A stretch of DNA of 64,000 nt from a virus, in the IMG/VR virus record IMGVR_UViG_3300005573_000995, positions 22,877 to 86,876 of that record. One strand, written 5' to 3'. A model generated the notes under the pieces. That model was given only the letters and a program-made list of their open reading frames with translations. It searched no databases and had not been told where the DNA came from. Made by a program: the position numbers and the translations under genes. Below are positions 13,363 through 30,903 of the stretch, piece by piece (position 1 is the stretch's first letter; every line of letters starts with the position of its first letter).

Positions 13363-14564
13363 TAAAATTGGTTACCTTAACACCACACGAAAAGATTATA
13401 TCGGCTAGATTAACTCTATTACGTGAGAACCCTTTCTTATCATACTTAGCGATGTCTCTTAATCTCACTCCTCTCCCAGAAAACAACACTCTAGGAATTA
13501 GTACGATGGCAGTAGATAGCTTTGGGCACTTATATTATAACGAGAAATGGGTTGGTGCTTTACCTCAGCAAGAACTGATAGGAGCTATATCTCATGAAGT
13601 ACTTCATCTTGCTCTATTGCATATTGTTAGAAAGGGCAACCGTAATGCTGTAATTATGTTACCTAATGGTGAGACAACCCTACTCTGGAATGTAGCAGTC
13701 GATATTGTAGCAAATAACCTAGTTGAAGAAATGGGTTATAGCTTACCACCAGACGTTATCAAAAACAAGCAACTTGCTACCTTTCCAGCCGAAGAGGTTT
13801 ACTATAAGTTACTTAATGACAAATCACAAAATGGATTTCGTAAGTTTTTCCTTAATGGAATACTATTCGACAAGCATATCTTTGGCGTAATAGATAAAAA
13901 TGGCAAGATTAGAGACCTAACTGAAGATGAAAAAAAGGCATTAGAGAATGTTTGGGCTAAAAAAGCAAGAGAAGCAGCAACGTATGCCCAGAAACAAGGG
14001 ACCTTACCTTCTTCACTAGAAAGAATATTCGACTTAGTTGAACCAAAGCTAGACTGGAGAACGATATTACAACGCTTCGTTGTAAAGTCATTACCAACCG
14101 ATGTATCTTTCAGAAAGCCAAATAGACGGAGCTATACGTGTGGAGACTTTATCTTTCCTGGACAAATAAAAGAGTCCCTACAACTACATTTTGCAATTGA
14201 TACAAGCGGTTCAATCGACAAGGAAACATTAAGCCAAGTAGCGTCAGAAATCGTTGGAATATGCAAAGTCTATGAGAACATTAAGCTAATTATCTTAACT
14301 TCTGATGCTCAAGTCCATCAAGAATTTACAACTGTAGAGGAAATGCTAAAAGGAGTAGAAGGTGGTGGTGGAACGGACTTTCGTCCAGTTTTTGAATATA
14401 TAGAAGAGAATCAAGCAGAGTGTAATGCTCTAATTTACTTTACAGATGGGCAAGGAACTTTTCCCGAAGAAGCTCCTCCTTATCCCGTCTTATGGGTGCT
14501 ATGTGGTTATCACATACAACCAAATGAAGTTCCCTTTGGAGAAGTGATTGTCATTGACTCATGA
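13359..14564 (+). CDS. HExxH metallopeptidase-like plus VWA domain protein (DUF2201-like), copy 1
   Basis: HEVLH; MIDAS DTSGS, GGGGTDF and FTDG. Confidence 0.9.
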   Translation: MIKLVTLTPHEKIISARLTLLRENPFLSYLAMSLNLTPLPENNTLGISTMAVDSFGHLYYNEKWVGALPQQELIGAISHEVLHLALLHIVRKGNRNAVIMLPNGETTLLWNVAVDIVANNLVEEMGYSLPPDVIKNKQLATFPAEEVYYKLLNDKSQNGFRKFFLNGILFDKHIFGVIDKNGKIRDLTEDEKKALENVWAKKAREAATYAQKQGTLPSSLERIFDLVEPKLDWRTILQRFVVKSLPTDVSFRKPNRRSYTCGDFIFPGQIKESLQLHFAIDTSGSIDKETLSQVASEIVGICKVYENIKLIILTSDAQVHQEFTTVEEMLKGVEGGGGTDFRPVFEYIEENQAECNALIYFTDGQGTFPEEAPPYPVLWVLCGYHIQPNEVPFGEVIVIDS

Positions 14565-14853
14565 GCAGAAATACTGCAAACGATGTTTAGAGTTAGGGGT
14601 AAAGGTTCCGTTACTTAAAAAAGTAAATAAAGAAACAGGAAAAGTAGTGTGGAAACATAATGCATTCTGTGCTTGGCATTGGTGGTTTGACTATAAGATG
14701 AATGTCTATCCTCGCCTTGAAATATCTCGACCTGTAATGTCTTATGAAAGTTGGAAAGCAGGCTTAAGAAAGAACAGCAAGCATGAGGGTGAAATTGGAA
14801 AGTACGTCTTTACTGCTCCCCCAAAGAAATATAGGCTGGTAGAAATGATATGA
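14548..14853 (+). CDS. Zn-finger paralog family member 1
   Basis: YCKRC...CAWHWW...TAPPKKYRLVEMI. Confidence 0.85.
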   Translation: MSLTHEQKYCKRCLELGVKVPLLKKVNKETGKVVWKHNAFCAWHWWFDYKMNVYPRLEISRPVMSYESWKAGLRKNSKHEGEIGKYVFTAPPKKYRLVEMI

Positions 14854-15155
14854 TATCACCACCATATTGTGTTGAGTGTGCTAAATACGGCTTAAAAGTC
14901 ATAGCAGAAACTCGCTTGGTAAAAACTCACTTAGATAAACGGAAAAATCTAGGTTCATTTGCCTATGAGCAATGGCTTCCTGCGCTACTATGTAGCTGGC
15001 ATAGATGGTTTACTAAAGCTTATTGTAACCCTTCTATTTATAATGTCAGATTTTTAAGTGAAGTTTCTTGGAAAGACTATCAGAAAGTAGTTAAAAGAGA
15101 AGGTTATAAAGTTTCTGCTCCTCCTAAGGAATATAGGATGCTGGAGTTGATATAA
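14850..15155 (+). CDS. Zn-finger paralog family member 2
   Basis: YCVEC...CSWHRW...SAPPKEYRMLELI. Confidence 0.85.
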   Translation: MISPPYCVECAKYGLKVIAETRLVKTHLDKRKNLGSFAYEQWLPALLCSWHRWFTKAYCNPSIYNVRFLSEVSWKDYQKVVKREGYKVSAPPKEYRMLELI

Positions 15156-15440
15156 ATGATGAAATATTGTATCGAGTGCGCAAAGTACGGGCTAAAGATA
15201 CCAGTGTTTCACAAAATCAATACTGATACAGAAAAGATAGTGTGGGAGCATCATTCGTTCTGCGGGTGGCATTGGTGGCTCGATAATAAGTCCGTTCTTT
15301 CAGCCATTCTCCAAACTTATGAAGGTTGGGTAGCATGGATAGCCGAAAGAAGTAAGAATAAAGGAGATGAGGAATACATTATTACTTCACCTCCCAACGC
15401 ATATAAATTGATGGAGATGATGAGAATTAACTCAAAATAA
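15156..15440 (+). CDS. Zn-finger paralog family member 3
   Basis: YCIEC...CGWHWW...TSPPNAYKLMEMM. Confidence 0.85.
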   Translation: MMKYCIECAKYGLKIPVFHKINTDTEKIVWEHHSFCGWHWWLDNKSVLSAILQTYEGWVAWIAERSKNKGDEEYIITSPPNAYKLMEMMRINSK

Positions 15441-15789
15441 GACCCCAAAGCTTACTAAGTGGACACTAGCTTCTGAAAGACTCAACAATATTTCTTGCGT
15501 AAATAAGCTGATAGCACCTGCGCAAAAGCCTCGAGTTATTTGGTGTTTCTATTGTCTAAAATATAAAATCAAAATAGCTAGCACATTTTTGTTAGACTCG
15601 ACAGTCACAGTCTCTCATCCTGCACATCATGTATGCACTTTTCATAAGTGGTTATTGGAAAGGCGTCGTTTCTATCCTTCTTTTCAAGCTTATCTTGAGT
15701 GGTTAGAAGAATATAATCTCGAAGGAAAAGAGGAGCACACATTTCCACCACAAAAATATAGACTGTTAGATGTGGTGAGATTCTTATGA
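15427..15789 (+). CDS. Zn-finger paralog family member 4 (no canonical start before the CxxC)
   Basis: Frame open from 15424 and encodes WCFYCLKY upstream of the annotated TTG at 15589; then CTFHKW...TFPPQKYRLLDVV. Confidence 0.7.
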   Translation, partial: LTQNKTPKLTKWTLASERLNNISCVNKLIAPAQKPRVIWCFYCLKYKIKIASTFLLDSTVTVSHPAHHVCTFHKWLLERRRFYPSFQAYLEWLEEYNLEGKEEHTFPPQKYRLLDVVRFL

Positions 15790-16166
15790 GCTTAAAGAAA
15801 AATGAAACTCATTTGACTCCGATAAAAGACTATGTATCCTCTCCTAAGCATGCGTACTGTAAGCTCTGCCTTAAATACAATGAAAAAATAGCTACTGCAA
15901 GCATTATTTTCATACATAATCTTGCTCTTGACGTTTGCACCTTTCATAGTTGGTTAATTGAAGTTAATTCAAAATTTAATCTGGAGACCTACAAAAGTGG
16001 CTATAATCTGAAGGGCTACAAAGAATATCGGCAATACTTAAAAGAGGAACATCTTGCAGGACTTAATGATAAGCTTACACAACCATCGAAGTCCGTAATG
16101 TTGATGGAACTGATTAGATGGGCAAATGGAACTAAGGAGGCATTAGAGTCTTATGAAAACATCTAA
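15786..16166 (+). CDS. Zn-finger paralog family member 5
   Basis: YCKLC...CTFHSW...TQPSKSVMLMELI. Confidence 0.85.
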   Translation: MSLKKNETHLTPIKDYVSSPKHAYCKLCLKYNEKIATASIIFIHNLALDVCTFHSWLIEVNSKFNLETYKSGYNLKGYKEYRQYLKEEHLAGLNDKLTQPSKSVMLMELIRWANGTKEALESYENI

Positions 16167-16467
16167 AGCAAAACCTGCTAAACAAAAGAGCTGGTCGCCA
16201 CTTAGTCTAACGCCGCTTCTCTACTGCAATTTCTGTTCTACGTATGGAAAAAAGGTAGGTAGCAACTTCCTTGATGATGGCATGCACCTTTGCACATGGC
16301 ATCATTGGCTATACAAGTATGGTGGTGGCAATAGTGAGGAAACTTACGTTGAGTATTTAAGGTGGTTGGAGAAAAAAGGAATTGAAGAAGTAGGAACACA
16401 TACTGCTCCACCCAAGTCTATACGTCTAATGGATATGATAAGGTTAAGCAAAGGGAAAAGAATATAA
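16153..16467 (+). CDS. Zn-finger paralog family member 6
   Basis: YCNFC...CTWHHW...TAPPKSIRLMDMI. Confidence 0.85.
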   Translation: MKTSKAKPAKQKSWSPLSLTPLLYCNFCSTYGKKVGSNFLDDGMHLCTWHHWLYKYGGGNSEETYVEYLRWLEKKGIEEVGTHTAPPKSIRLMDMIRLSKGKRI

Positions 16468-16540
16468 AAGTTTATTAACAACTTGTCGAAAGACTTAAAT
16501 ATCCTGTGTATATTATTTCTCTGGAGGTAGATAAGCCAAA

Positions 16541-16723
16541 ATGTCAGTAAAGGAAATAAGCGAAAGAGACTGGCGAGGAGCATTAGCTGTTGGTCTAGTA
16601 GCTATCACTGCCGTTCTTGCTGTTTTAAATGGTGAATATCACCTCGGAATCGATAATATCATAACGGTATTCAGCACACTAACAGTTAGCGCTGTTTCTT
16701 GGTGGTATAAGACTCAATCTTAA
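16541..16723 (+). CDS. Small two-TM membrane protein (holin-like)
   Basis: Two hydrophobic segments; SD GGAGGT; TATA upstream. Confidence 0.6.
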   Translation: MSVKEISERDWRGALAVGLVAITAVLAVLNGEYHLGIDNIITVFSTLTVSAVSWWYKTQS

Positions 16724-16733
16724 GGGCGAGACT

Positions 16734-17270
16734 ATGAATAGCGAAGAACCAAACCCTCTCCCAATTGAAGAGTCTGAAACCGTAAAAGATGTCTTACCAG
16801 TTGTTGAAGAAGTAGCCTCTCTTTCTCCTGAAGATTCTCTCCCCCTTGAAGCGCCAGAAGAGTTGCCTCAAGAAGCCACTTCTCAAGAAGAAGCTACTCA
16901 AGAGGGAAAAGAAAAGAAAAAGAAAATAGTATGTCCACGCTGTAAGCATGTGTGGTATTCTAAGGCTATGGGCTATTACACTTGTTCACAATGTTCTTAT
17001 AAGTTTCGCCCTGGACAAGTGCCACGAGAGAAGAGAGCAGAAAGGACATGGGTAGCTAACTTAGATAATATTGATTTGAGAACGTCAGAAGGGCAGAGTG
17101 CTTTACTTCTACAAATTCAAGAGGCATTAGCACAAAGGTCTCTAACGTGGGGAGATATGACTGCCATCGACCGCTTACTCAAGACCATTAGCATTAAGAA
17201 GGATTTAGATGTTATGAAGATGTTTATCGAGATGCGTAAAGAGATAGATGAATTGAAGAAAGGTGTCTAA
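16734..17270 (+). CDS. Probable terminase small subunit (Zn ribbon plus helical region)
   Basis: Directly upstream of terL; CPRC...CSQC; called mainly by position. Confidence 0.5.
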   Translation: MNSEEPNPLPIEESETVKDVLPVVEEVASLSPEDSLPLEAPEELPQEATSQEEATQEGKEKKKKIVCPRCKHVWYSKAMGYYTCSQCSYKFRPGQVPREKRAERTWVANLDNIDLRTSEGQSALLLQIQEALAQRSLTWGDMTAIDRLLKTISIKKDLDVMKMFIEMRKEIDELKKGV

Positions 17271-17296
17271 TTAGCTGACAGTAAGGATGACGGAAT

Positions 17297-19957
17297 TTGA
17301 GTAGCACAACCAATTGGTACTATGAGAAGCTAAAGAGAGACTTAGATAAAATAAAGAAGAAAAAGCTACAAGAAGAGGATAAAGAGCTTATTCCAGACGA
17401 CATTATTGAATTTATAACCAAATTCCGAATTATTAGAGGAAGACCTTTTTTATTTGACTATGTAGACCCCAATACAGGGGTTGTTATTCCTCAAGCTAGA
17501 AAATATTTGTATGATATTTATAGAACAGCAGTTAATCCTCAAGTTCACGATATTATTATCACAAAAGGCAGGCAAATGGAAATCTCCGAATTAGCCGTTA
17601 ATGTTTTGCTTTATTTTGCTCTCAAATATCAAGACCGTCATCTAGTTTTACTTTATACTGCTCCTCGAGGAGACCAAGTCTCTCGCTTTTCCAATAGACG
17701 CTTGAGAATAGAAGCTATAAAACAGAGCAAGCTTATTCGAAAATATTTGACAGGTACTGATGCAACCGAGACAGTCCAGCTTGGCAACTGTACAACCTAT
17801 TTATACTCTGCTTGGGGGGAATTTGATGCAGTAAGGAACATCGATGCGGATGTAGCAATCGTTGATGAAGCTCAAGATATTCAATCTTCTGCTTTCCCCG
17901 TTATTCGTGAAAATATGGCTCATAGTTGGTTAAAGAAGTTTATCGTGATTGGAACACCGAAAGAAGCTAATTCCCCATTTGAGAATCTGTGGAACATGAG
18001 TGATAGGAGAGAATGGGATAAAGAGACAGGGAAGTGGATAAAAACTGTATCAGAGCCAAGACCTTTTGTCGGTTTTCATGTTTCTCAAGAAATGGCTCCT
18101 TGGATTACAAAAGAAGAGCTTGAAGCAAAGAAGATGCATTATACTCAACAGCAATTCTATAACGAAGTGCTAGGGCTGTTCTATAAGGGATTGGGTAGGC
18201 CAATCACAATCGAAGACTTATTTGCTTGCACAAACAGAGATATTGGATTCCAATCATTTGCAGAAGATACTTATGCAGGGGTGGATTGGGGGTGTTATGA
18301 TGAACAAACTAGAACACTCACTAATAGAGGATTTAAATATTATTGGGAAATAACTTCGGACGATTTGATTGCTCAATTTGACCCACAAACAGAAGAAATG
18401 TCATTTGTAAAGCCCTTAAAGAAAATAGTATTTCATCATCGGGGGAAAATGGTACGAATAAAGAATAAGCACCAAGATATGTTAATTACACCCGACCACA
18501 AATGCATATTTCGCAAAGAATGGCAAAAGAAATGGACCAAATGCGAAGCTCAAGACTTATTGTCTTTAGATGATATAATTTTACCCAGTAAGGCGCGATG
18601 GAAAGGTGAGAATAAAGAATACTTTATACTACCATCAACCATTCGCAAAGATTGGAACAGAATATATGAAGAAAAGAAAATTGATATGAAAGTGTGGTTA
18701 GAATTTCTCGGCTACTTTCTATCTGATGGATGTGTAGCCTTTAGAAACGCAGACCATCAGCATAGTAGAATGGTTCAGGTACAAATATGTCAAAGAAACG
18801 TACATCCTTACAAGGTTAATGCAATAAGGAATGTTTTGAATAAGTTGCCCTTCAAGTATGGAACATATTTCTATGAAAAGTATGGGGATTATCAGTTCAA
18901 AATTGCAAACAAACAGTTATATGAGTGGTTGGCAAATCATTGTGGTGCTGATTCAAAGACGAAGCACATACCAAGGGAATTTCTCGAATTATCTCCTGAA
19001 TATTTAAGAATACTCTTAGATTCTTTAATGTTAGGAGATGGATATTGGTCAAAAAATAAGACTGGGGGGACTTATTATACAATATCAAAGCAACTTGCGG
19101 ATGATGTATTTGAACTAACTATTAAACTTGGTTTCAATTCTCACTTATCTTATAGCTCTGGTAAATATAGAATAAACTTCTCTTTGTTAGATAAAAAACG
19201 GCATATAAGGGGAAAGAATGATGTTGAAATTGTAGACTATGATGGAATGGCATATTGTTTCTCTGTTCCAACAGGTTTCTTTGTTACAGAGCGTAATGGG
19301 TATATAGCATTCCAAGGTAACACTTCAACCAAAGATAATGCTGATACTGTATACTGGTGTATAAAACCATTAGACGATGGTAAAATTCATACGGTCTTCA
19401 TTTCCAAAATAGATACCCCAGATATAATGGAGCAAGTTCGGTTTGTAGCGAAATACATAGACCGCTATGATAACAGAAGGGTGGTTGTCGATTGGGGCTT
19501 TGGGCATGTTCAAACGCAAGAGCTACAAAAGATGTATGGGATGAGAGTCCTTCCTTGCGATTATAGTGGGAGTGAAATCAAACCAGTTGAAATCAAGCTC
19601 ACACAAACAGGCACAAAGCTACATCTGAACCGCACATTAGCAATAGATACCGTTTTCGACTTGATTAAGAAGAAGAACTTAGTTATCCCCGGTAAGAACA
19701 GAGAACTAACAGATTGGCTATATAAGAACTTTATGGTAATGTATCAAGAATCCGAAGTATCAACAACAGGGAAAAACATACGGCGATGGGTTAAGGACAA
19801 GGGAGAAGATGCCCATGATGACGCCGTTCATGCTCTCGTATATGCCTACTATGCTTATCAAACAGATAGAACCAGAAAAGCTATGGAACTTGGCGAAGGT
19901 CCTCCTCCTGTCTATTTCGTTCCTCATTCTGAAGAAGAGTTTGGGCTTCCTTTTTGA
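17297..19957 (+). CDS. terL: Terminase large subunit with an intein
   Basis: KGRQMEISE (Walker A variant), AIVDEAQ, IGTP; nuclease motifs GVDWG, VVDWGFG and HDDAVHA. Confidence 0.93.
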   Translation: MSSTTNWYYEKLKRDLDKIKKKKLQEEDKELIPDDIIEFITKFRIIRGRPFLFDYVDPNTGVVIPQARKYLYDIYRTAVNPQVHDIIITKGRQMEISELAVNVLLYFALKYQDRHLVLLYTAPRGDQVSRFSNRRLRIEAIKQSKLIRKYLTGTDATETVQLGNCTTYLYSAWGEFDAVRNIDADVAIVDEAQDIQSSAFPVIRENMAHSWLKKFIVIGTPKEANSPFENLWNMSDRREWDKETGKWIKTVSEPRPFVGFHVSQEMAPWITKEELEAKKMHYTQQQFYNEVLGLFYKGLGRPITIEDLFACTNRDIGFQSFAEDTYAGVDWGCYDEQTRTLTNRGFKYYWEITSDDLIAQFDPQTEEMSFVKPLKKIVFHHRGKMVRIKNKHQDMLITPDHKCIFRKEWQKKWTKCEAQDLLSLDDIILPSKARWKGENKEYFILPSTIRKDWNRIYEEKKIDMKVWLEFLGYFLSDGCVAFRNADHQHSRMVQVQICQRNVHPYKVNAIRNVLNKLPFKYGTYFYEKYGDYQFKIANKQLYEWLANHCGADSKTKHIPREFLELSPEYLRILLDSLMLGDGYWSKNKTGGTYYTISKQLADDVFELTIKLGFNSHLSYSSGKYRINFSLLDKKRHIRGKNDVEIVDYDGMAYCFSVPTGFFVTERNGYIAFQGNTSTKDNADTVYWCIKPLDDGKIHTVFISKIDTPDIMEQVRFVAKYIDRYDNRRVVVDWGFGHVQTQELQKMYGMRVLPCDYSGSEIKPVEIKLTQTGTKLHLNRTLAIDTVFDLIKKKNLVIPGKNRELTDWLYKNFMVMYQESEVSTTGKNIRRWVKDKGEDAHDDAVHALVYAYYAYQTDRTRKAMELGEGPPPVYFVPHSEEEFGLPF
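18293..19321 (+). mobile_element. Intein (343 aa, LAGLIDADG type) in the terminase nuclease domain
   Basis: GVDWG|CYDEQT...IAFQGN|TS; blocks ITPDH, FLGYFLSDG and LMLGDG. Confidence 0.92.
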
Positions 19958-20011
19958 TTAGAACAAGAAAAACTTTATATATTTTGTTAGAAATATTATA
20001 ATGGCAAAGGT

Positions 20012-20341
20012 ATGAAAGAACTTCGCATAACGCCTAAATTGTGGGGGGAAGAGCATCTTTTAGTAAACGAGCCACAATATGCTATAAAACTTCTCTTTAT
20101 AAAGAAAGGTTCTACGTCTAAGCACTATCATGTTCTCAAAAAGGAGACACTTTACGTTCTTAATGGTACTGCTACATTACGTATATTTACAGTTCAAGAG
20201 AAAGACGAGACTACGCACGATTATGTCTTGCAAGAGGGGGACTACTTTACCGTTATGCCATGCGCAATACATCAGATTACGGGTCCTGCAACAATCCTCG
20301 AAGTGTCTACCCAACCTTATGATGATGTGATAAGATTATAG
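20012..20341 (+). CDS. Cupin-domain protein
   Basis: SKHYH..KKETLYV..G...HQI...LEVST. Confidence 0.85.
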   Translation: MKELRITPKLWGEEHLLVNEPQYAIKLLFIKKGSTSKHYHVLKKETLYVLNGTATLRIFTVQEKDETTHDYVLQEGDYFTVMPCAIHQITGPATILEVSTQPYDDVIRL

Positions 20342-20356
20342 TAGGTGAGAGAATAG

Positions 20357-20620
20357 ATGAAGTTAGTTCAAATAATTGCTGTTTTTTCTATTCTTCTAAT
20401 TGGCATCATTACTTTCGCTTCTCTATGGGTGCTTCTATATTCAACTGTAAATCTATTCCAGTTCACATTAAGACCCAATGCAACTACTCCCTATGCTTAT
20501 TCGTATGACATCATGATGCAAGGTATGCAAGGCATTTTTAATCTTGCTTTCATTTTGCTGGTTTTAACGTTTGTTGTCTCGTCTCTGGTCTTGCTAATTG
20601 AAGCAAAAGCTGTTGGGTAA
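20357..20620 (+). CDS. Two-TM membrane protein
   Basis: Two long hydrophobic stretches; SD GGTGA. Confidence 0.7.
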   Translation: MKLVQIIAVFSILLIGIITFASLWVLLYSTVNLFQFTLRPNATTPYAYSYDIMMQGMQGIFNLAFILLVLTFVVSSLVLLIEAKAVG

Positions 20621-20699
20621 GAGGGCAGAACGTTCAAGCGTACTGTTATCTGCCTTATATATCGTTCAATACTTATTGAATCATAAGCATTCTTTTTTT

Positions 20700-21023
20700 C
20701 TATATAAGATTTGAAATCGAATTAGAATTTTTGATTTGAAGAAAAGATGCTGAAAAATAGCTCAAATTGTTGCTATGATTTATGAGCAATCTTTGAATAA
20801 ATTTCTCTAAAAATCTACGGAATTTTTCATAGGGATTTCTATCAAAAATGCTGAAAAAATGGCTGGAAATCCTTTCGGCAACTTTTTAAAATATATTTTC
20901 AAATTCTGCTGAATTTTATCGGCAATTCTATAAGAAAATCTTTGGATTTTGCTTTAATTTTTTTCTCCAGATTTTTTCAAAATGCTGGAAAAAATTTTTG
21001 GCGAAATTTCAAACCGGAAAAAT
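20700..21023. other. Phased A/T-tract (intrinsically bent) DNA, copy 1
   Basis: AAAAT/AATTT/ATTTT tracts recur roughly every 10-11 bp over about 320 bp. Confidence 0.75.
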
Positions 21024-21048
21024 TTTTCCCGGGGGTACCTGCTTCCTC
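21024..21048 (+). repeat. 25-bp direct repeat copy 1, TTTTCCCGGGGGTACCTGCTTCCTC (candidate pac/terminus site)
   Basis: Identical to 24509-24533. Confidence 0.85.
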
Positions 21049-21255
21049 TTCGAGCCTTTGTCGCTTGATTTGTTCTGCTCGTGCCAAAACGGCTTTTTTG
21101 TGGTCTTTATTGTCAATCAAGGGCTAAAAATGATAAAGTCCAAGCATCTTATAAAGTTTTATGATTGTTCTCAGGGATTATGATATATTATTTTCATAAT
21201 ATAGTATCGGTAGAGATTAAGGAGCGGGCAGGAACGGCAAACAAGGGTATTTTTA

Positions 21256-21437
21256 CAAATATTTGACAACCAAGGATGCCCGTTGCTCCTATAGGTAAGG
21301 GGCTTAAAATGAACAAATATTTGAAAAACACTGGTATCGTCGCTTTCCACTGCACTGCTGGTTCGTTGAACAAATATTTGGTTGCGCAGGACGTCGTTGG
21401 TGAGCATCGCAGTGGGCCGGTGTTAAACAAATATTTG
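21256..21437. repeat. CAAATATTTG palindrome cluster 1 (4 sites; spacing 58/57/57)
   Basis: Sites start at 21256, 21314, 21371 and 21428, with unique GC-richer spacers. Confidence 0.9.
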
Positions 21438-21491
21438 GGAACAAAATCCTTATTAACCCCTGCTCATATACTATTGGTGGGAAAGAGAAAA

Positions 21492-21695
21492 ATGTTAGTC
21501 TTCGCTTTCAGAGACGAGAAAGAAGCTAGTAAAGCCTGGGAAGTTCTTTTCATGGAGACAGAGAACCCATTATGGCTACGAAGATATGGCAATAAGATAA
21601 TCGACGAGAACAATGATTCGCGGACATATCGAAGCCGTCTAGTGAAGAGCCTTAAGGTAGCACTTCTCAACCCCAAGAAGGTGATGAAGACCTAA
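21492..21695 (+). CDS. Hypothetical protein (likely true start of ORF 21276..21695)
   Basis: TATA-like CTTATTAA at 21449 and GGTGG leader before the ATG at 21492. Confidence 0.65.
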   Translation: MLVFAFRDEKEASKAWEVLFMETENPLWLRRYGNKIIDENNDSRTYRSRLVKSLKVALLNPKKVMKT

Positions 21696-21835
21696 TGGCT
21701 TCTCAAGCGCTATTTATCCAAATCTGTAAAAGATGCGGACATAAATGGTGGCCAAGAAGCCTACTCAAGCCAAAAGTATGCCCCAAATGTAAATCGCCAT
21801 ATTGGGACAGAGAACGGAAAAGAATAGAGACCTAA
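21695..21835 (+). CDS. 46-aa Zn-ribbon microprotein (CKRCGHKW.PR...CPKCKSPYW)
   Basis: Translated by hand; TAATG coupling to the upstream gene; motif type common in archaeal viruses; followed by a T-rich terminator. Confidence 0.8.
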   Translation: MASQALFIQICKRCGHKWWPRSLLKPKVCPKCKSPYWDRERKRIET

Positions 21836-21846
21836 AGTCTCCACTC

Positions 21847-21890
21847 TCTTTATTTTTGTTTTTATTTTTGAAAAAAGAAAGAAAAAAGCT
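21847..21890. terminator. Bidirectional oligo-T terminator
   Basis: T-runs followed by A-runs between convergent genes. Confidence 0.6.
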
Positions 21891-21896
21891 TACGAT

Positions 21897-22007
21897 TTAG
21901 TATTCCTCTGACTTTACCTCATATTCCTGTTTGTCAAAATCAAAAGAAATGACGGTAAAAAGCTTTTTCTTTTGATTTTGCGTATCCACGTTTTTGCTTT
22001 CGACCAA
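21897..22007 (-). CDS. 36-aa peptide MVESKNVDTQNQKKKLFTVISFDFDKQEYEVKSEEY
   Basis: Minus-strand TATA (TTTAAATA, 22043-22050), purine-rich leader and TTG start. Confidence 0.5.
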   Translation of the reverse strand: MVESKNVDTQNQKKKLFTVISFDFDKQEYEVKSEEY

Positions 22008-22071
22008 ATGCCTTTCCCTCGACAGATAGTTATACCCTACTCTATTTAAACGTATCGCTAGGTAACCCGCT

Positions 22072-22265
22072 TAAATGTTTGTTAGAGCACGCAGGACAGG
22101 AGATAGACGGTTCGCTTACAAATATTTGTTCTAGACAACTGCTTAGTGCCGAACGGCAACGCTCTGGTGCAGGCAGTTGGATAAAACAAATATTTGAAAA
22201 AGCCTAACCTTGTCACAAAGCTTACCAACGCTACTGGATTTGGTATCTATTAAATCAAACATTTG
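22072..22265. repeat. CAAATATTTG cluster 2 (4 sites, two degenerate; spacing 47/68/69)
   Basis: TAAATGTTTG at 22072, exact sites at 22119 and 22187, CAAACATTTG at 22256. Confidence 0.85.
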
Positions 22266-22352
22266 TAAACACCCGGCCTCTAGGATATGCATCGGCTATC
22301 CATCGATAGCTTTATATACTATCATACTATTATACTATGCGGGGATACAAAT

Positions 22353-22832
22353 ATGGTTGGTCGATTTCAAGTAATGGCAACACTCCAAGCAGCACGTGCG
22401 TATAAGCTAGGTCTTTCCCTAGACTCAGCTTATTCGTGGGGTCTAGACCGTGCCCTATTCTATGCGGTAGCCAAAAGAGGCTTTAAGGGCAAAAGGCACT
22501 TTATCCCAAATGCGCAATCCGCTAAGGCACCAATCGGCGTTAAGCAACCTGTCGAAACTCCGAAGCCAAAATACAGCATGTTCTACCTAGGTGATGAAGG
22601 CGCATTCATGGATAACGATAAGGCTCTTTTCGTCTTCGGCGATAAAACTCTAACTCCGCAAGACTTTCAGAGGCAAATAATCAGTAGACTTAAAGACTTT
22701 CAGAGCGCCTGGAGTGAAGCCTTAAATATCGTCTCTCAGTACAGTAATGAGAAGCTTCTCTCATCAAAAGCCTTTTTTGAGGAAATCTACAAGCCTAGGA
22801 GAGACGAATTAGCCCTTAAGTGGCTACAGTAA
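22353..22832 (+). CDS. Conserved hypothetical protein (GRFQVMATLQAARAY family)
   Basis: TATA TTTATATA at 22311; the N-terminus resembles, from memory, an uncharacterised family in Thermoproteota; T-rich terminator follows. Confidence 0.8.
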   Translation: MVGRFQVMATLQAARAYKLGLSLDSAYSWGLDRALFYAVAKRGFKGKRHFIPNAQSAKAPIGVKQPVETPKPKYSMFYLGDEGAFMDNDKALFVFGDKTLTPQDFQRQIISRLKDFQSAWSEALNIVSQYSNEKLLSSKAFFEEIYKPRRDELALKWLQ

Positions 22833-22856
22833 AAAATTTTTTCTTTTTTTTTCTTT

Positions 22857-23279
22857 TTAGCTTAAAGCCTCTAAGAGTTCGCTTTCTTTCAGTAGTGCAG
22901 CATGTAACCGCTCTCCATACATGAAAAGAAGGTAAAAGACACGATAATCGTGTTTAGTGGACCCACCATGAAACTCGATAACCGCGGGTAGAGAAGGCAA
23001 AATCTGATAGACAACGTTATCTATCCTTTTTCGGTCTAAAAATTCACGTTCAAACTTATATTGCGGATGTAATCCCTTAATCTGTGCAGCCCAAGGCTTT
23101 CGTTGTGCCCATCCTCCTTCATTACAGTAAACAAAATCTTCATGCTTAACGCAAAAGTCATTTCCGAATTTCAGAAACTCATAAGGTCGAGCATTAGCTA
23201 GCTTTTTCTCCACTAGCTTCTCTATCCACGTCTTCGTTTCGACTGAAGTATTTTCTTGGCTCATTTTTCCCTCATACAT
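22857..23279 (-). CDS. Hypothetical protein
   Basis: Minus-strand TATA at about 23296-23303; convergent terminator at 22833-22857. Confidence 0.75.
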   Translation of the reverse strand: MYEGKMSQENTSVETKTWIEKLVEKKLANARPYEFLKFGNDFCVKHEDFVYCNEGGWAQRKPWAAQIKGLHPQYKFEREFLDRKRIDNVVYQILPSLPAVIEFHGGSTKHDYRVFYLLFMYGERLHAALLKESELLEALS

Positions 23280-23369
23280 CTATATAACCGTGCTGTATAT
23301 AAAGCTTGTGGAGTGTCCTTTATAAGCGATTGCAAGATTGCAATCCAGACGCTAAGCAAGGACAGTGTT

Positions 23370-23492
23370 CAAATATTTGTTTATGTACGACATCCCTTGG
23401 GGGGATAGAGGAGGGGGGCATAAAAACAAATATTTGATTTCTACCGAATTCCTCCTCGTCCGGCAAGCACGCCGGTACAAATCAAATATTTG
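23370..23492. repeat. CAAATATTTG cluster 3 (3 sites; spacing 57/56)
   Basis: Sites at 23370, 23427 and 23483, between divergent promoters. Confidence 0.9.
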
Positions 23493-23572
23493 CGCAAAAA
23501 AGACCTACGGCAAGTTCTTCCTTGACCAATAGCCTTAAATAACCCTCTTTACTTATAGGTAGTGGTGGGAAA

Positions 23573-24172
23573 ATGGGCTATACCCATTATTGGCGAAGAC
23601 CGAAAGAAATAGACCGAAAGAGATTTTCTCTAATCGTCAGAGACTTCAAAAGAGTAATGCCTACTCTCGAGCACTTGGGCATAAAGCTAGCTGATGGCTA
23701 CGGGGAAAATAAACCTGTAGTCAATATCCACCGCGTATGGTTCAACGGGCTAGCGAAATGCGGACATGAAAAGCATGACTATGGGATACCATGGCCAGCA
23801 GAGAACGCTAAAGGAGTAGTTCTTAGCGGAATGCCTAAAAACGAAGTTCTCGGAGGTATATGGTTTGCTGGGGCTTTACTGAACGCTAGAACATGTAATG
23901 GCGATTGCTCCCATGAAACTTTCAATTTCCCTCGTCAAATGAATAGGAAAAACTCTCTCCTAATCAAGGACGGAGAAATGTTTTTCGATTGCTGCAAAAC
24001 CGCTTATAAGCCCTATGACTTCGCGGTAAACGTCTTTCTAATCATAGCCAAGCACTACCTTAAAGACGATATCATAGTTACAAGTGACGGAACAATCGAA
24101 CAATGGCAAGACGCTATCGATTTTGTCCAGAGATTTCTAGACTATGGGCAAGACTTTCAGCTAGCCAATTAA
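23573..24172 (+). CDS. Hypothetical viral protein (MGYTHYW family)
   Basis: MGYTHYW...HETF...CKT..KPYD...SDG pattern seen in many phage hypothetical proteins; own promoter and terminator. Confidence 0.85.
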   Translation: MGYTHYWRRPKEIDRKRFSLIVRDFKRVMPTLEHLGIKLADGYGENKPVVNIHRVWFNGLAKCGHEKHDYGIPWPAENAKGVVLSGMPKNEVLGGIWFAGALLNARTCNGDCSHETFNFPRQMNRKNSLLIKDGEMFFDCCKTAYKPYDFAVNVFLIIAKHYLKDDIIVTSDGTIEQWQDAIDFVQRFLDYGQDFQLAN

Positions 24173-24184
24173 AGCATGCTTTTT

Positions 24185-24508
24185 TTCTATTAAGAAAAAA
24201 ATCGACCTTTAGATTTTTTGGAAATTGACGATGCCTAATCGAAATTATCTACGGTTTTTATAGAATTTTCTTTCAAAAAGCCATTAGATTTTCAGCCAAA
24301 ATGCTTAAAGTTTTGGCGATAATTTACTCTAAAATTTGCTGGGAATTTGCTTGCTTTTTGTTAGAAAATCTGGGCCATTTGCCGGGGAAATGTCAAGGAA
24401 AATTATCAAAAAAGCTGGGCAAAATTCTGCGAAATTCGTCTCAAAATCTGCGCTCAAAATTTTGGGATTCGCGAAAAAATTTTTTTAAAAATTCTATGGG
24501 GGCAAAAA
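24185..24508. other. Phased A/T-tract (bent) DNA, copy 2
   Basis: A/T tracts at about 10-11 bp periodicity; sequence not identical to copy 1. Confidence 0.75.
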
Positions 24509-24533
24509 TTTTCCCGGGGGTACCTGCTTCCTC
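24509..24533 (+). repeat. 25-bp direct repeat copy 2
   Basis: Identical to 21024-21048. Confidence 0.85.
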
Positions 24534-24743
24534 CGCTCTCTTTTCGTCTAAATAGTTTACATAGCGCTATATAGGATTGATAGAATAAAGGCTAGACCAT
24601 ACTGATAAGAAGACCTAATTACGGTCCTTATTGTTCGTGCCAATCCTTATCGCTACTTATAGTATATAGACCTATGTATTTAAACCTTTTGCCTATTTAC
24701 TAATTCATGTTTTTCCTGGTCTTCTACTTATCCGTATTTATTC

Positions 24744-24781
24744 CAAATGTTTGATAAGGACAGTATTTATTCAAATATTTG
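24744..24781. repeat. CAAATATTTG cluster 4 (2 sites)
   Basis: CAAATGTTTG at 24744 and CAAATATTTG at 24772, each preceded by GTATTTATT. Confidence 0.75.
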
Positions 24782-24952
24782 TGACCTTAGTCTATATACT
24801 ACCCTCCGAAACTATATAGACCTACATAGGCCATCTAATGCCTATATATTCGTTCTTATCTCTATATAGAAGTTTAAACTTTTGCGCCAGGTTTAAACTC
24901 TTTAGGGTAAAGGTATATATACCCTAGGGGTATAATCTCAACCGTAAGAAAA

Positions 24953-25093
24953 ATGATAACCCAAAACCGAAACAGAAAGAATAACCTAGTTTACGAGGGC
25001 CGCTTTATGTGCTACGAATGTGGCACGGTCTTCGTGAGTACTAGGTATTTGCATGCACATATAAAGAATGTGCATGTGCATAAGGAGGAGTGA
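24953..25093 (+). CDS. 46-aa classical C2H2 zinc-finger protein
   Basis: FMCYECGTVFVSTRYLHAHIKNVH (C-x2-C-x12-H-x4-H); TATA at about 24913. Confidence 0.8.
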   Translation: MITQNRNRKNNLVYEGRFMCYECGTVFVSTRYLHAHIKNVHVHKEE

Positions 25094-25099
25094 AAGACC

Positions 25100-25327
25100 A
25101 TGTCCGATGAGCTAGTTCTTATGCGAAAAGACCGTTTAGGTCCTGGACAGATGATGTACAAGTGTAGGGAATGCAGAGAGCACACAATACACAACTATGA
25201 GATAAGCATGCCATCATCTTATCATCAGCATTATAGGATTACGCTAGACATTTACAAGTGTATCAATTGCGGAACCTTGAAGTATATTTCCCATAGAGAG
25301 GGTTATGTCGAGAGGTCCATGATGTAA
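25100..25327 (+). CDS. Zn-ribbon protein
   Basis: CREC...CINC; SD GGAGGAG. Confidence 0.75.
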   Translation: MSDELVLMRKDRLGPGQMMYKCRECREHTIHNYEISMPSSYHQHYRITLDIYKCINCGTLKYISHREGYVERSMM

Positions 25328-25668
25328 TGATAACCGAAAAACAAAGGAAAAAAATCCTTCGGCAGCTAAAAACATATGTAGAAAAGGGTAGCCTATATAA
25401 GCTACACTACACTATTACTGTTCCGAAACCTTTCCTACACATTACTGCTAGTATACATATTTTTGAACAAGAAATTATAGAATTTGGCAAGGGAAGTTAT
25501 CTAGATGGGATTGATATTTGGAATTTGATCCATCTAGTCTTATATCTTCAAAGCCAAGGAATACAGGTAAATTGGATTAGGGTAGACGATAAGTTTGAGT
25601 ATTATCCTAATCTTCACATATCGCTAACCCTAGATCACATGCTAGTGGATCATATATTGGAGGAATAA
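25327..25668 (+). CDS. Hypothetical protein
   Basis: TAATG coupling to the upstream gene. Confidence 0.65.
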   Translation: MITEKQRKKILRQLKTYVEKGSLYKLHYTITVPKPFLHITASIHIFEQEIIEFGKGSYLDGIDIWNLIHLVLYLQSQGIQVNWIRVDDKFEYYPNLHISLTLDHMLVDHILEE

Positions 25669-25780
25669 AGGAATTGGACGAAAGAGATCAAACCGCCATA
25701 AGTGAAGCCATGGGAATATGGCTTCAGTTAGTCCTGAAAGAATTAGCACTAGTTGCTTATGAAGGGGGAGCACTAGGAAA

Positions 25781-26218
25781 TTGACCTTAAGCATTACGAT
25801 AATAAGCTATAGGCTTCCATCATATCAACGCAAGATGATGGAAACTAATCCTGAACTTAAGGCCAACATAAAAAAGGCCTATAACAAGGCATGGGCAAAA
25901 CTGTCCGAATTAGGTCCTCATCTAGGGACCTCTCAAATTGTTAGTTTTGTCAATCCTAGCGTAATAAGGGAAAGGCTAGAAGGGATTAAAGTTAAGCTTG
26001 ATCTCGATAAGCCTTTTGCTGTCTTTCATGTCTTAACTACAGAGGAATTGCCATCATGGATACCCTTTTTGGAGACCACAATAAGCGAAAAGCTTGAAAT
26101 AGTCAAAAATAAGAATAGTTATAGAAGTAGGACCGAATATGCCAAGCTACATAATGCACTAGAAGATTTGGAAACGATCAAAAGCGAATTAGCAAATAAG
26201 GCTTTAGAGGTGATTTAG
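25781..26218 (+). CDS. Hypothetical protein preceding MoxR copy 2
   Basis: ORF with SD; operonic spacing. Confidence 0.7.
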   Translation: MTLSITIISYRLPSYQRKMMETNPELKANIKKAYNKAWAKLSELGPHLGTSQIVSFVNPSVIRERLEGIKVKLDLDKPFAVFHVLTTEELPSWIPFLETTISEKLEIVKNKNSYRSRTEYAKLHNALEDLETIKSELANKALEVI

Positions 26219-26220
26219 TT

Positions 26221-27303
26221 TTGAACATTCCTCAAGTTTCCCCCAACCAGCTTATGAAAATTTTAGAAATAGCGCATAAAACTAAAACTGCTGTCCTAAT
26301 AGTAGGACGCTACGGAGTCGGAAAGACCTCAATCCCATATCAATACGCTAATGATAACAGATTTTACCTCGAGGACCTAAAGCTAAGTCAATTTGATGCG
26401 ATAAGCTTGAGAGGTCCTCCGGAGACCGAAATAAAAGACGGTATAAAAATAACGACTTGGCCTATAGGAGACATGTTTTATAGACTTTCACAACATAAAG
26501 AAGGGGCCGTTTTGCTATTGGATGAATTCGATAAAGCGACCCCTTCAGTAGCTAGCGCTAGTTATGAGCTATTACTTCAGAGACGTTATGGTAATTTTGT
26601 TTTAGCAGATAACGTTTTGATTGTAGCTACAAGTAATTTAGAATCTGAAGATTTTAGGAGTGAGGGATTTAGTATCCCTCAATTGGACCGTCTGTTAAAA
26701 GTAGAGCTAGCTTATCAGCTTGAGGATTGGCTAGCTTATGCGAAAAACAAGGGAATAGACAGTAGAATTATAGAGTTTATAAGCACTAATCCCTCTCGCT
26801 TATGGAGAGAAGGACAACCTGAAAGTTTTACTACTACTTCACCTAGAGGATGGGAAAGATTAAGCCATCTACTTCAAAACGTTAATAATTTGGATGTTGA
26901 GCTAATCGAGACGCTAGCAGGGGCCCTAGTAGGGTCCGATATCGCTAGCGAATTTATTGAATTCATTAATGAGGTATCATGGCAAAAGATTTACATTAAC
27001 AACGATATGCAGAAGCTTAAAAACCTTGATTTAGCAGCTAGAAAACTAGTAATAAAACAAGCTGCCCAAGATGTTGCTAGTGATATTGTGAAATCGCATA
27101 ATGCTGCTTATAATCTGAAACTAACGTTTATAACGAATTATTGCCTAGATTATGATGATCTTGAATTTGCTGTTTTGTTTTTCAGAGGCCTGAAGCTAAA
27201 TCTCGACAGTTTTGATGATTTTATTAGGTCCTATAGCTGGCCAAGAAAAACGGAATTATTGACAAAAATAACTGCCTTCAGTAAAAATGGAGGCAGTTCC
27301 TAA
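26221..27303 (+). CDS. MoxR-family AAA+ ATPase (copy 2)
   Basis: GRYGVGKT, LLLDE, ATSN, LDRL, SPRGW. Confidence 0.9.
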   Translation: MNIPQVSPNQLMKILEIAHKTKTAVLIVGRYGVGKTSIPYQYANDNRFYLEDLKLSQFDAISLRGPPETEIKDGIKITTWPIGDMFYRLSQHKEGAVLLLDEFDKATPSVASASYELLLQRRYGNFVLADNVLIVATSNLESEDFRSEGFSIPQLDRLLKVELAYQLEDWLAYAKNKGIDSRIIEFISTNPSRLWREGQPESFTTTSPRGWERLSHLLQNVNNLDVELIETLAGALVGSDIASEFIEFINEVSWQKIYINNDMQKLKNLDLAARKLVIKQAAQDVASDIVKSHNAAYNLKLTFITNYCLDYDDLEFAVLFFRGLKLNLDSFDDFIRSYSWPRKTELLTKITAFSKNGGSS

Positions 27304-28649
27304 TGAATTACGAAAAAATTATAAATGATGCGCTTATACTAATCCGCAATAAATCAAGGATATCCTTCAGCATATTAAAAAATTTTGACTTTAAGGCTTC
27401 TAGTGAAATAAATACTTTTGCTGTAGATGAACAAAACTTAACAATTTACTACAGCCCTAAATTTATTGAGGAAATTTTAAGCAATAAGAAATATACGCTA
27501 TTCACAATAAGCTCTATAATTGAACATGAATTATGCCATGTGCTTGGAGAGGATTATTTAAGAGCTAAACTTCTTCAAAAAAATAACATACCTATTATTC
27601 TTGATGTTTGGAATTGGTCTTGTGATGCTATAATTAATTCGGACCTTATAGCTCACGGTTGGAGCCTGACGGAAAACTGTGTATACCCAGATTTTAGAGC
27701 TATAGGCTTCGACCGTGTCCCTCCTAAAGAAGTACTTTACGAAAGAATTTTAAGAGATTATTATAACGAAGGAGACCAAGGGGACCAAGACCAAGATCAA
27801 GACCAAGACCAAGATCAAGACCAAGACCAAGATCAAGACCAAGACCAAGATCAAGACCAAGACCAAGATCAAGACCAAGAAGGAGGACAATCCGCCAAGG
27901 CTAAAGCTAAAGTAAATGTTAAGGGTTGTCAAGGACAGCAAACAATAGAGGATCCCAAAGATTTTGAAAAAAGCGTTGAAAAGGCTAGTGCTGATATAGC
28001 TCAAAAAATCGAAAAATCATTACAAAACATAGATAATAAAGACATTAGTGAAGATACGCCACAAGCAGTTAAGATATTTGCCCAAAATATCTTAAAACGC
28101 TTAAGAATTCCATTTAGCGCTAAACTGTCTAGGGTTATCTCTACCCATCTAGGAGATTCGGAAAATTGGACAAGACCTCATATAATTAGTAGTGCTGTAG
28201 GCAAGAAATTGCCTAGTTATAACAAGGAATTGCCTAAAATCGCTATAATCTTTGATGTTTCAGGTTCAATAGATACTGAAGAGGCACAAAACTTTTTGAA
28301 TTTAGCTAGTAAATATATTAGAGCACATAGAGAATCAGAGATTTACGTAATAACTTGCGATGATGCTGTCCAATTCTTTAAGAAAATTCACAATTTACAA
28401 GAAATACCGTTAGAGGGACGAGGCTCCACAGATTTTAGGCCACCATTCGAATTGATCAAGGAAAAACACTTAAACCCAGACCTAATTTTATACTTTACGG
28501 ATTTGCGAGGGATATTTCCTTCTTATCGAAAAATTCCTCAACTATATTGGATTGTTGAGGAAAAGAAGTACAATTCTCTCAACGAAGGATATAGATCTGA
28601 AGCCATTCGATTAGGGAAAGTTATTACCTACAGAGAGGATGAGCTATAA
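27303..28649 (+). CDS. HExxH plus VWA protein (copy 2) with a (DQ)n linker
   Basis: HELCH; DVSGS, GRGSTDF and FTD. Confidence 0.9.
   Translation: MNYEKIINDALILIRNKSRISFSILKNFDFKASSEINTFAVDEQNLTIYYSPKFIEEILSNKKYTLFTISSIIEHELCHVLGEDYLRAKLLQKNNIPIILDVWNWSCDAIINSDLIAHGWSLTENCVYPDFRAIGFDRVPPKEVLYERILRDYYNEGDQGDQDQDQDQDQDQDQDQDQDQDQDQDQDQDQDQEGGQSAKAKAKVNVKGCQGQQTIEDPKDFEKSVEKASADIAQKIEKSLQNIDNKDISEDTPQAVKIFAQNILKRLRIPFSAKLSRVISTHLGDSENWTRPHIISSAVGKKLPSYNKELPKIAIIFDVSGSIDTEEAQNFLNLASKYIRAHRESEIYVITCDDAVQFFKKIHNLQEIPLEGRGSTDFRPPFELIKEKHLNPDLILYFTDLRGIFPSYRKIPQLYWIVEEKKYNSLNEGYRSEAIRLGKVITYREDEL
27783..27878 (+). repeat. Hexamer tandem repeat GA(C/T)CAA x16 encoding (DQ)16
   Basis: 18-bp super-unit GACCAAGACCAAGATCAA x5 plus one GACCAA. 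Confidence 0.95.
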
Positions 28650-29710: not shown

Positions 29711-29934
29711 CAAATATTTGTTAAAAATTAACGTTTTGAGGGGACCACTGGATATCGGATTTTTTACAAATATTTGTAGCGGTTTAAGGGTTTGAAGGGT
29801 TAGCAAGCAGTTTAAAACCCTACAAATATTTGATAACCTACTCTACCTAGGATATAGTTAGCTCACTTATTGCGTTATAGATGCAATAAAGACCTATACC
29901 GTGTCCTAGATGTTGAAAGGTTTACAAATATTTG
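29711..29934. repeat. CAAATATTTG cluster 5 (4 sites; spacing 56/56/102)
   Basis: Sites at 29711, 29767, 29823 and 29925. Confidence 0.9.
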
Positions 29935-30426: not shown

Positions 30427-30903
30427 ATGAACAGAAAGGAACTCGCTATAACAGCTTTAATGACTACTCTTTATGTCGTCTTAGTTCAATCTCTTGGTCC
30501 TCTATCCTTTATGCAAATACAGGTTAGAATAGCGAATGCTCTAATAGGTGTAGTGCCAGTAGTGGGTGAACCGGCAGTGATTGGTCTTACGCTAGGTGTA
30601 TTAATAGGAAATATCAACAGTCCTCTGGGCTTTATTGACCTTCTCTCGTTTATCCCTTCCCTTTTTGGAATGATAATAGTTCTCAAGACTAAAGGAAAGA
30701 TGGTAATGGTAGGGCTATCGGTCTATAGTCTATTACTTTCAGCTTGGGTAGCTTTTATGCTAAACATGATATTTGGAGTTCCATATCTTATAACATTTCT
30801 CTATGTGCTTGGAGGAATGATTATATCTACTGTCGTCCTAGGCTATCTGGTATATATTGGCTTAAAGAAAAGAATGAGAAGCTATGAGAGTAGCAAAAAT
30901 TGA
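30427..30903 (+). CDS. queT: QueT-family queuosine-precursor transporter (ECF S-component)
   Basis: ALM..LYVVL...PLSF..IQVRIA.AL...A.IGLTLG..IGN..SPLG..D pattern; multi-TM. Confidence 0.8.
   Translation: MNRKELAITALMTTLYVVLVQSLGPLSFMQIQVRIANALIGVVPVVGEPAVIGLTLGVLIGNINSPLGFIDLLSFIPSLFGMIIVLKTKGKMVMVGLSVYSLLLSAWVAFMLNMIFGVPYLITFLYVLGGMIISTVVLGYLVYIGLKKRMRSYESSKN

Follow-up and report, generated by a model that had tools for sequence, protein, structure and literature searches.

Two Elements Between the Terminase Operon and the Early Genes

Record IMGVR_UViG_3300005573_000995 holds 86,876 bp of viral DNA, of which bases 22877-86876 constitute the window of 64,000 nt analyzed here; positions are those of the window unless marked as genome positions. 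At the transition from a long replication-terminase operon to the early-gene region, the window contains a stretch of phased A/T tracts that closes with a 25-bp core, and a second element of the same build follows about 3.5 kb further on. An earlier inspection of the letters without database searches, termed the sequence-only reading in the following, had noted the pair and placed the first site about 1 kb past terL, the gene for the large terminase subunit. This is accurate, as terL ends at 19957 and element 1 starts 728 bp and its core 1,067 bp downstream of that point. The cores (TTTTCCCGGGGGTACCTGCTTCCTC) had likewise been described correctly as identical: they occupy positions 21024-21048 and 24509-24533, both on the plus strand, without mismatch and at a spacing of 3,485 bp, and no third copy exists anywhere in the genome. 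No match to the core arose in 100 shuffles.

The left ends of the elements share a second box of 19 bp, AAGCATKCTTTTTTTCTAT, which starts at 20685 and 24172, is matched exactly by both copies except at the N position and has no other match in the window. From left box to core end the elements measure 364 and 362 bp, and each starts at or just past the stop codon of a plus-strand gene with a left box that includes a T7 run. In element 1, the left box (AAGCATTCTTTTTTTCTAT, 20685..20703, plus strand) carries its T7 run 65 nt past the stop of the gene at 20357-20620. It is followed by a non-coding interior (20704..21018) in which about 29 A/T tracts are phased at roughly 11.3 bp and both strands are rich in oligo-T, and by the right box (21019..21048, plus strand), which consists of A5T5 and the invariant core and is identical to copy 2 from 21024 onwards. 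In element 2, the left box (AAGCATGCTTTTTTTCTAT, 24172..24190, plus strand) overlaps the stop codon of the gene at 23573-24172, the interior (24191..24503) comprises about 25 phased A/T tracts at a period of about 11.15 bp, and the right box (24504..24533, plus strand) consists of A5T4 and the invariant core at 24509-24533. Among public runs, this stretch of DNA occurs in two only, both of them hot-spring metagenomes (X1 and X2), which may stem from a single sampling campaign and may include the source sample. A minority variant in these runs (depth 2 out of 16.8 in X1, 7.2 out of 65.2 in X2) carries one extra T after 24508, by which the identity with copy 1 is lengthened to 31 bp.

With regard to the interiors, the statement that the two A-tract regions differ in sequence proved correct. 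Local alignment of the interiors with each other scored z = 4-5 above plain dinucleotide shuffles and only z = 0.9-1.3 above permutations that keep the 11-bp phase. Tandem Repeats Finder called no repeat unit in the blocks, and no conserved non-A/T word was found ahead of the tracts. The register of the A-tracts relative to the core was also compared between the copies and discarded as unusable, since it depends too strongly on the assumed period. DNA shape and phase, length and the two ends are kept in the pair, while the sequence of the interior is free. The difference of only 2 bp, despite the frequent slippage in homopolymer-rich DNA, suggests that length itself is constrained. The strains present in the metagenomes agree with a fast-changing interior between fixed ends: among the best 40 of 42 variant rows from both runs there is no substitution in the core, whereas a second strain in X2 differs in block 1 by at least six substitutions and at least one 1-nt deletion between 20806 and 20921 and diverges completely after 20903. 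In X1, at least one contig matches only from 24475 rightwards. The constancy of both end boxes and of the length (364 and 362 bp) despite unrelated interiors points to a nucleoprotein complex of defined size. The elements are probably docking sites for a DNA-wrapping protein.

The core itself is not a coding sequence, because the two open reading frames (ORFs) across it do not translate it in the same frame. It corresponds to no Rfam family at threshold (two sub-threshold matches look like chance), a tRNA search returned nothing, and no notable single-strand fold was found. Differing frames and the lack of an RNA family and of a single-strand fold together point to a recognition site in duplex DNA. 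The palindromes CCCGGG and GGTACC inside the core occur three and five times in the genome, as expected.

Phasing and Curvature of the A/T Tracts

The genome was scanned independently of any bending model by recording the periodicity of A/T-tract centres in 300-bp windows with a Rayleigh-type statistic. The two blocks are the genome-wide maxima with 24-28 tracts per 300 bp compared to a median of 9, and with a statistic that reaches 9.6 in block 1 and 14.7 in block 2 compared to a 99th percentile of 6.9. Each core thus closes a phased A-tract array, as had been proposed, and these arrays are the strongest in the genome. Their period amounts to 11.1-11.3 bp, whereas the AA/TT periodicity of the genome outside the blocks peaks at 10.0 bp. 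Runs of the type AnTm, an arrangement known to bend DNA, outnumber those of the type TnAm by 25:5. In an admittedly crude AA/TT wedge model, the ratio of end-to-end distance to contour length was 0.88 for the blocks and 0.95-0.97 for two coding controls, and the axis twisted in the same sense as that of an 11-bp control and opposite to that of a 10-bp control. Curvature-type periodicity is described as generally lacking in phage genomes, and links have been drawn between an 11-bp period and negative supercoiling and between the 10-bp period of some archaea and positive supercoiling (PMC3431218).

Transcription Signals and Small Genes Around the Elements

Each block contains five to eight T runs and six A runs of at least five nucleotides, and the density of A/T runs in the blocks, 14-22 per kb, exceeds that of the genome (1.6-2.2 per kb) about tenfold. 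Archaeal RNA polymerase stops at oligo-T. From this mode of termination and the density of oligo-T and oligo-A it would follow that neither strand is transcribed across the blocks.

Each core is followed on its right by a non-coding stretch of 200-240 bp that contains TATA-like boxes, then by CAAATATTTG palindromes and finally by small genes. This palindrome is present 16 times in the window compared to an expectation of 0.1, is mostly clustered at a spacing of 56-58 bp immediately ahead of promoters in the 21-30 kb region, and often forms the tips of longer inverted repeats with arms of 20-27 nt. Four copies spaced by 57-58 bp (21256..21437) are located just upstream of the TATA box of the gene starting at 21492, while other sites reside at 22119-22196, 23370-23492, 24772-24781, 29711-29934, 39175 and 41733 as well as at genome positions 5988 and 9370. 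The set probably represents the operators of an early-gene regulator. The sole minus-strand gene of the region (22857-23279) adjoins a three-site CAAATATTTG cluster and is a candidate for encoding a regulator. The sequence-only reading had seen the same layout after both cores, including a leftward TATA box. With respect to the palindromes this holds for core 1, which is followed by four copies, and only loosely for core 2, with one exact copy and a one-mismatch copy near 24745. The leftward TATA-like box, on the other hand, is clear after core 2 (minus strand, 24684 and 24669), while after core 1 the near-palindromic CTTATAAA at 21148 is the only candidate.

The segment between the elements (21049..24171) harbors five small genes together with the promoters and terminators that serve them; the genes are located at 21492-21695, 21695-21835 (encoding a zinc ribbon), 22353-22832, 22857-23279 (minus strand) and 23573-24172. 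Neither informative relatives nor informative folds were found for their products with the exception of a 199-residue protein encoded beside block 2, for which 38 IMG/VR loci were retrieved, none of them with a block, core or operator. Promoters of the virus follow the consensus RSYTTAWATA about 35-50 nt 5' of the ATG and are thus of the archaeal TATA type. If the arrays acted as upstream curved-DNA activators of promoters, a recognizable promoter could be expected directly after each of them; A5T5 plus core does not match this consensus, and TATA-like boxes appear 100-150 bp further on. The core as an ordinary promoter was rejected for lack of the TATA consensus.

These surroundings are the basis for a reading that we rank second and hold to be rather doubtful, namely that the elements are architectural or regulatory parts of the early region. 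A curved block impassable to transcription might insulate the late operon from the early genes and let a viral or host chromatin protein dock, and the core might be an operator or nucleation site that sets early-gene expression. It would explain why both copies are kept, each having its own local job, and it is in line with the T7 run directly past a gene stop, the density of A/T runs, the period that differs between blocks and genome, and the succession of TATA-like boxes, CAAATATTTG operators and small genes after both elements. However, other early promoters (22311, 23534 and a cluster near 29.7-30.4 kb) do without such a block, ordinary terminators in the same region take up only about 40 bp, the invariant site, at 25-31 bp, is rather large for an operator, and A5T5 plus core is unlike the promoter consensus.

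Contig Depth and Junctions in Metagenomes

Two explanations had originally been offered for the duplication: the elements could be the two ends of a terminal repeat of about 3.5 kb, or genome-end modules joined by recombination. Both were confronted with the assemblies of X1 and X2, for which depth is available as one mean per assembled contig and not per base. In X2, a contig that covers exactly 21019-24512 has a depth of 29.1; to its left values of 33.8 (14837-20295) and 32.1 (20349-20805) and to its right values of 25.5 (24509-27790) and 30 were recorded. In X1, two contigs from the segment reach 7.84 and 6.93 with flanks at 7.56 (left) and 8.15 (right). Segment depth divided by flank depth is therefore approximately 1.0 and 0.94 in the two runs.

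A direct terminal repeat of 3.5 kb that was collapsed during assembly, with the elements as its borders, accordingly appears very improbable to us. Identical direct sites do bracket small early genes with their own promoters beside the terminase operon, which resembles the terminal repeats bearing early genes in T5 and SPO1, and both copies would be kept as both would be essential. Still, the source contig neither begins nor ends at the cores, and the depth between them equals that of the flanks, while for virion DNA a collapsed terminal repeat is described as yielding about twofold depth, with 1.8 as cut-off (PMC5418689). A single depth is also what intracellular concatemers with terminal repeats would give, and metagenomic DNA may be mostly intracellular. 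In the assemblies of both runs contigs break at the cores, as an assembler that works with short words stops at a shared repeat.

The least probable of the readings weighed here takes the cores as sites of site-specific recombination, either as attL and attR of a 3.5-kb cassette or as resolution sites, or sees in the elements a leader-like sequence with a solitary repeat as in clustered regularly interspaced short palindromic repeats (CRISPR). An exact direct repeat of 25-31 bp brackets a cassette of orphan genes, and accessory DNA next to a core is the layout of cer, psi and res sites. With regard to the CRISPR variant, mini-CRISPR arrays can be present in hot-spring Bathyarchaeia viruses (PMC10848311). 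However, no integrase, resolvase or other recombinase was detected among the ORFs scanned, the core has no inverted arms, and a simple att duplication would leave two full-length curved blocks unexplained. Junctions that delete the segment, as predicted by the recombination proposal, were absent from the contig joints listed (n = 2) for X1 and X2, so that the excised form appears in no contig. In addition, a 20-mer of the core had 0 matches in GTDB and JGI data, where neither a host array nor an attB site was thus found.

Genome, Host and Replication Genes

The virus encodes a primase with a PriX domain, a family-B DNA polymerase (PolB), PCNA and a DHH/RecJ-like (RecJ/Cdc45-like) protein. In addition, an XPF/ERCC4 nuclease, a TopoVI-A-like Toprim protein and two MoxR-VWA pairs are encoded, and portal, major capsid and tail tube proteins represent the virion genes. 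The nearest relatives of TerL share at most 47% identity with it, and one of them stems from a Bathyarchaeota metagenome-assembled genome (MAG). Judged by its gene content, this hot-spring virus is an archaeal tailed virus, an archaeal host being assigned because of the PriX-type primase, PCNA, PolB, the inteins and the TATA-type promoters.

This equipment bears on a further reading, in which the elements are replication origins where bent DNA and an initiator-binding core lie beside easily melted DNA, possibly with priming by a short transcript. We consider it unlikely and place it third. Bent DNA beside a conserved box is common at origins, and multiple origins are common in large viruses. 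The virus has its own primase, PolB, PCNA and RecJ/Cdc45-like protein and no recognized initiator, and would need a private origin signal. The DNA to the right of the cores is very unstable, with the 60-bp window at 21146 ranking fifth and the 300-bp window at 24658 sixth genome-wide. The blocks themselves, on the other hand, are not outstanding unwinding elements, block 2 being outside the ten least stable windows at every window size. Furthermore, the cores are direct repeats 3.5 kb apart and not inverted boxes around an unwinding element, the GC skew keeps its sign at the elements, and domain scans revealed no Orc1/Cdc6 or MCM gene nearby.

A protease-like gene is present at both ends of the record (genome 1-1243; window 63097-64000). 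Its two forms agree in 69 of 73 residues, and one of them runs on into a LAGLIDADG region. In addition, genome positions 985-1073 recur unchanged as the final 89 bp of the contig. The map is therefore predicted to be circular and to have been opened at a polymorphism in intein presence instead of at the curved elements.

The intein load is unusually high: LAGLIDADG or intein-splicing domains are present in TerL, portal, PolB, a DNA methylase and another large protein (window positions 17297-19957, 35284-39669 and 1623-4814; L001:7150-9267 and 12457-15687). Several palindromes of 6 bp are avoided throughout the genome, among them GAGCTC (0 observed vs. 14 expected), GTCGAC (0 vs. 12), GTTAAC (1 vs. 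13), CATATG (2 vs. 18), CCATGG (2 vs. 13) and TTCGAA (5 vs. 18), which suggests restriction pressure by the host. A weak DpdA-like match, a protein with the "nucleotide modification associated domain 1", a QueT transporter and several methylases were also noted (modification-type genes at L001:11648-12442 on the minus strand, L001:19448-19864 and window 30427-30903), and the viral DNA may be modified, possibly with bases of the 7-deazaguanine type. Paralogous pairs of a MoxR-type ATPase and a VWA/metallopeptidase protein at 12313-14564 and 26221-28649 bracket the region from the terminase to the early genes. The second VWA gene contains an 18-bp tandem repeat (27765-27892), and public contigs break there too.

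Occurrence in Related Viruses

Uniform coverage and a core without conservation in relatives had been named beforehand as signs against the original proposal; as far as the contigs and the available relatives show, both were observed. A 21-mer of it had 0 matches in IMG/VR, and the 20-mer had none in JGI metagenome contigs or GTDB genomes; the single 16-mer match in IMG/VR, inside GC-rich coding DNA, was dismissed as chance. A scan of IMG/VR with the single TerL protein returned no relatives, and a TerL profile scan led to 74 metagenome loci and one genome locus, all with an identity of at most 46%. None of the 74 loci (606 kb) contains a comparable A-tract block, the best periodicity statistic being 7.4, and four loci searched for repeats do not have an analogous repeat pair. 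Only one (L088) shares several genes with the virus, in a different order. A scan for the paired-operator pattern was likewise set aside, as its 66 loci were mostly giant-virus MAG contigs and none had translated similarity to the window. As far as visible, the element seems lineage-specific, with the reservation that the absence of conservation is a weak indication when no close relative is at hand.

Packaging or Genome-End Formation as the Favored Reading

In terL (17297..19957, plus strand) the gpA-type ATPase is interrupted by a LAGLIDADG intein. Pfam assigns TerL to GpA_ATPase (PF05876; 31.2 bits vs. a cut-off of 25.6), and this family, to which gpA of lambda belongs, is carried by all 14 of the aligned TerL relatives. 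The likeness to terminases of the SPO1/K type that had been suspected from motifs is not upheld by this assignment. Among 173 phage records that match TerL, the best 15 comprise phages of Bacillus, Geobacillus, Rossellomorea, Staphylococcus and Escherichia and one uncultured phage, the records being 45 to 484 kb long. The gene directly upstream of terL (16734..17270, plus strand) encodes a protein with an acidic tail, a zinc ribbon and a helical C-terminal part that stands in the position of a small terminase subunit, a putative and unproven role. Searches yielded no homologs of it, and its predicted fold (predicted local distance difference test score 67) matched other structures via the zinc ribbon only, without a recognizable small-terminase fold.

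We tentatively rank first the reading that the elements are protein-wrapped recognition elements for packaging or genome-end formation, as a possibility that falls clearly short of an even chance. The element would be DNA of fixed length that is coded by its shape; its approximately 363 bp correspond to about 32 turns at 11.2 bp. An oligomeric DNA-binding protein would wrap it, while the invariant box of 25-31 bp at its right end would serve as the sequence-specific site. The gpA-type terminase would recognize this complex and cut at or near the core, which would make the element a pac- or cos-like signal. Docked on the curved block, the terminase could then package leftwards through TerL, so that the DNA to the right of the core, where the small operator-controlled early genes lie, would be the final part to be packaged and the leading part on entry into the next cell. 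We give this reading precedence because the elements directly follow the terminase operon and TerL is of the gpA type, because they border early genes that would be last packaged and first entering, and because small terminases of the SPP1/SF6 type find pac via bent DNA with A/T runs. The latter enzymes select intrinsically bent pac DNA in which runs of five to seven AT pairs are distributed among GC pairs (PMC4737164).

Several points weigh against this reading. Two copies are unexpected for a pac or cos site, and two direct cos sites should yield deletion or duplication variants, none of which was seen in the contigs. The breaks of contigs at the cores are what a short shared repeat would produce and are no positive sign of DNA ends; moreover, both cores are traversed by the source assembly, which seems to form a closed circle. 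The site is located downstream of TerL, neither beside nor inside a small-terminase gene, and neither homolog nor fold searches of the protein upstream of TerL identified a small terminase. No relative with the element was found in IMG/VR, JGI or GTDB data or among the loci of TerL relatives and of the 199-residue protein. Finally, A-tract curvature weakens at high temperature.

On a more speculative and likewise unlikely view, the pair would represent a new cis-acting organizer of thermophilic archaeal tailed viruses, a DNA solenoid with fixed length and about 32 turns that has an 11.2-bp phase within a 10.0-bp genome, is wrapped opposite to the histone sense or traps underwound DNA in a host with relaxed or overwound DNA, and whose invariant 31-bp box starts genome-end formation or replication. 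Should this be true, this group of viruses would have its first defined signal for packaging or replication, and the pair would be an instance of DNA shape being read at high temperature.

To our knowledge, and without a literature search aimed at this point, almost nothing has been established about the cis-acting signals of hot-spring archaeal tailed viruses, be it packaging sites, origins or early-gene control. The element pair offers a clean and testable candidate for such a signal, since shape, length and two short boxes are kept while the interior varies. It also poses a physical puzzle, as A-tract curvature is thought to fade in the heat and yet a thermophilic virus keeps two strongly phased arrays. 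For annotation, the case teaches that an exact repeat bracketing early genes does not amount to a terminal repeat unless depth or read ends speak for it.

Comparison with Known Systems

Close parallels exist with the pac sites of SPP1 and SF6, where runs of five to seven A/T pairs are interspersed with G/C pairs and shape is read over sequence (PMC4737164). There, cutting takes place at a specific site next to bent DNA in the neighborhood of the terminase genes (same source), an arrangement that the elements described here would share if cutting takes place at the core. The differences concern size, number and place: approximately 100 bp are wrapped at pac compared to the roughly 330 bp considered here, one site contrasts with two, and pac lies in or near the small-terminase gene whereas the elements follow TerL in a virus with an archaeal host.

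With lambda cos (cosQ-cosN-cosB) the elements have in common a TerL of the gpA type (GpA_ATPase) and the combination of a GC-rich specific site with bent DNA. In lambda, cos precedes the small-terminase gene and is bent by IHF. The elements, in contrast, are located downstream of TerL, are intrinsically bent and are present in two copies instead of as a single site per genome. T5 and SPO1 possess long direct terminal repeats that carry early genes, and the small early genes with their own promoters between the two sites beside packaging genes are reminiscent of them; however, depth is not doubled here, and identical boundary boxes are no defining feature of T5 or SPO1.

Hyperperiodic curved DNA is characteristic of the bent region of kinetoplast minicircles and of the phi29 p6 complex. 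Both resemble the elements in tens of A-tracts with a period above 10.5 bp and in a shape that is kept without sequence, while the fixed length, the invariant end boxes, the presence of two copies and the thermophilic archaeal virus set the elements apart. Archaeal chromosomal origins feature origin recognition boxes (ORB) around an unwinding element beside orc1/cdc6. A box containing a G run next to A/T-rich DNA is common to them and the elements, in which, unlike at these origins, the cores are direct and 3.5 kb apart, no orc1/cdc6 was found by the domain scans and other DNA of the genome is less stable than the blocks. Phased A-tract arrays are already known, as is bent DNA at packaging sites, origins and promoters; new is the combination seen here, in which a thermophilic archaeal virus has two copies of an array with fixed length and invariant boxes at both ends, while the interior is free and the period is 11.2 bp vs. 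10.0 bp in the surrounding genome.

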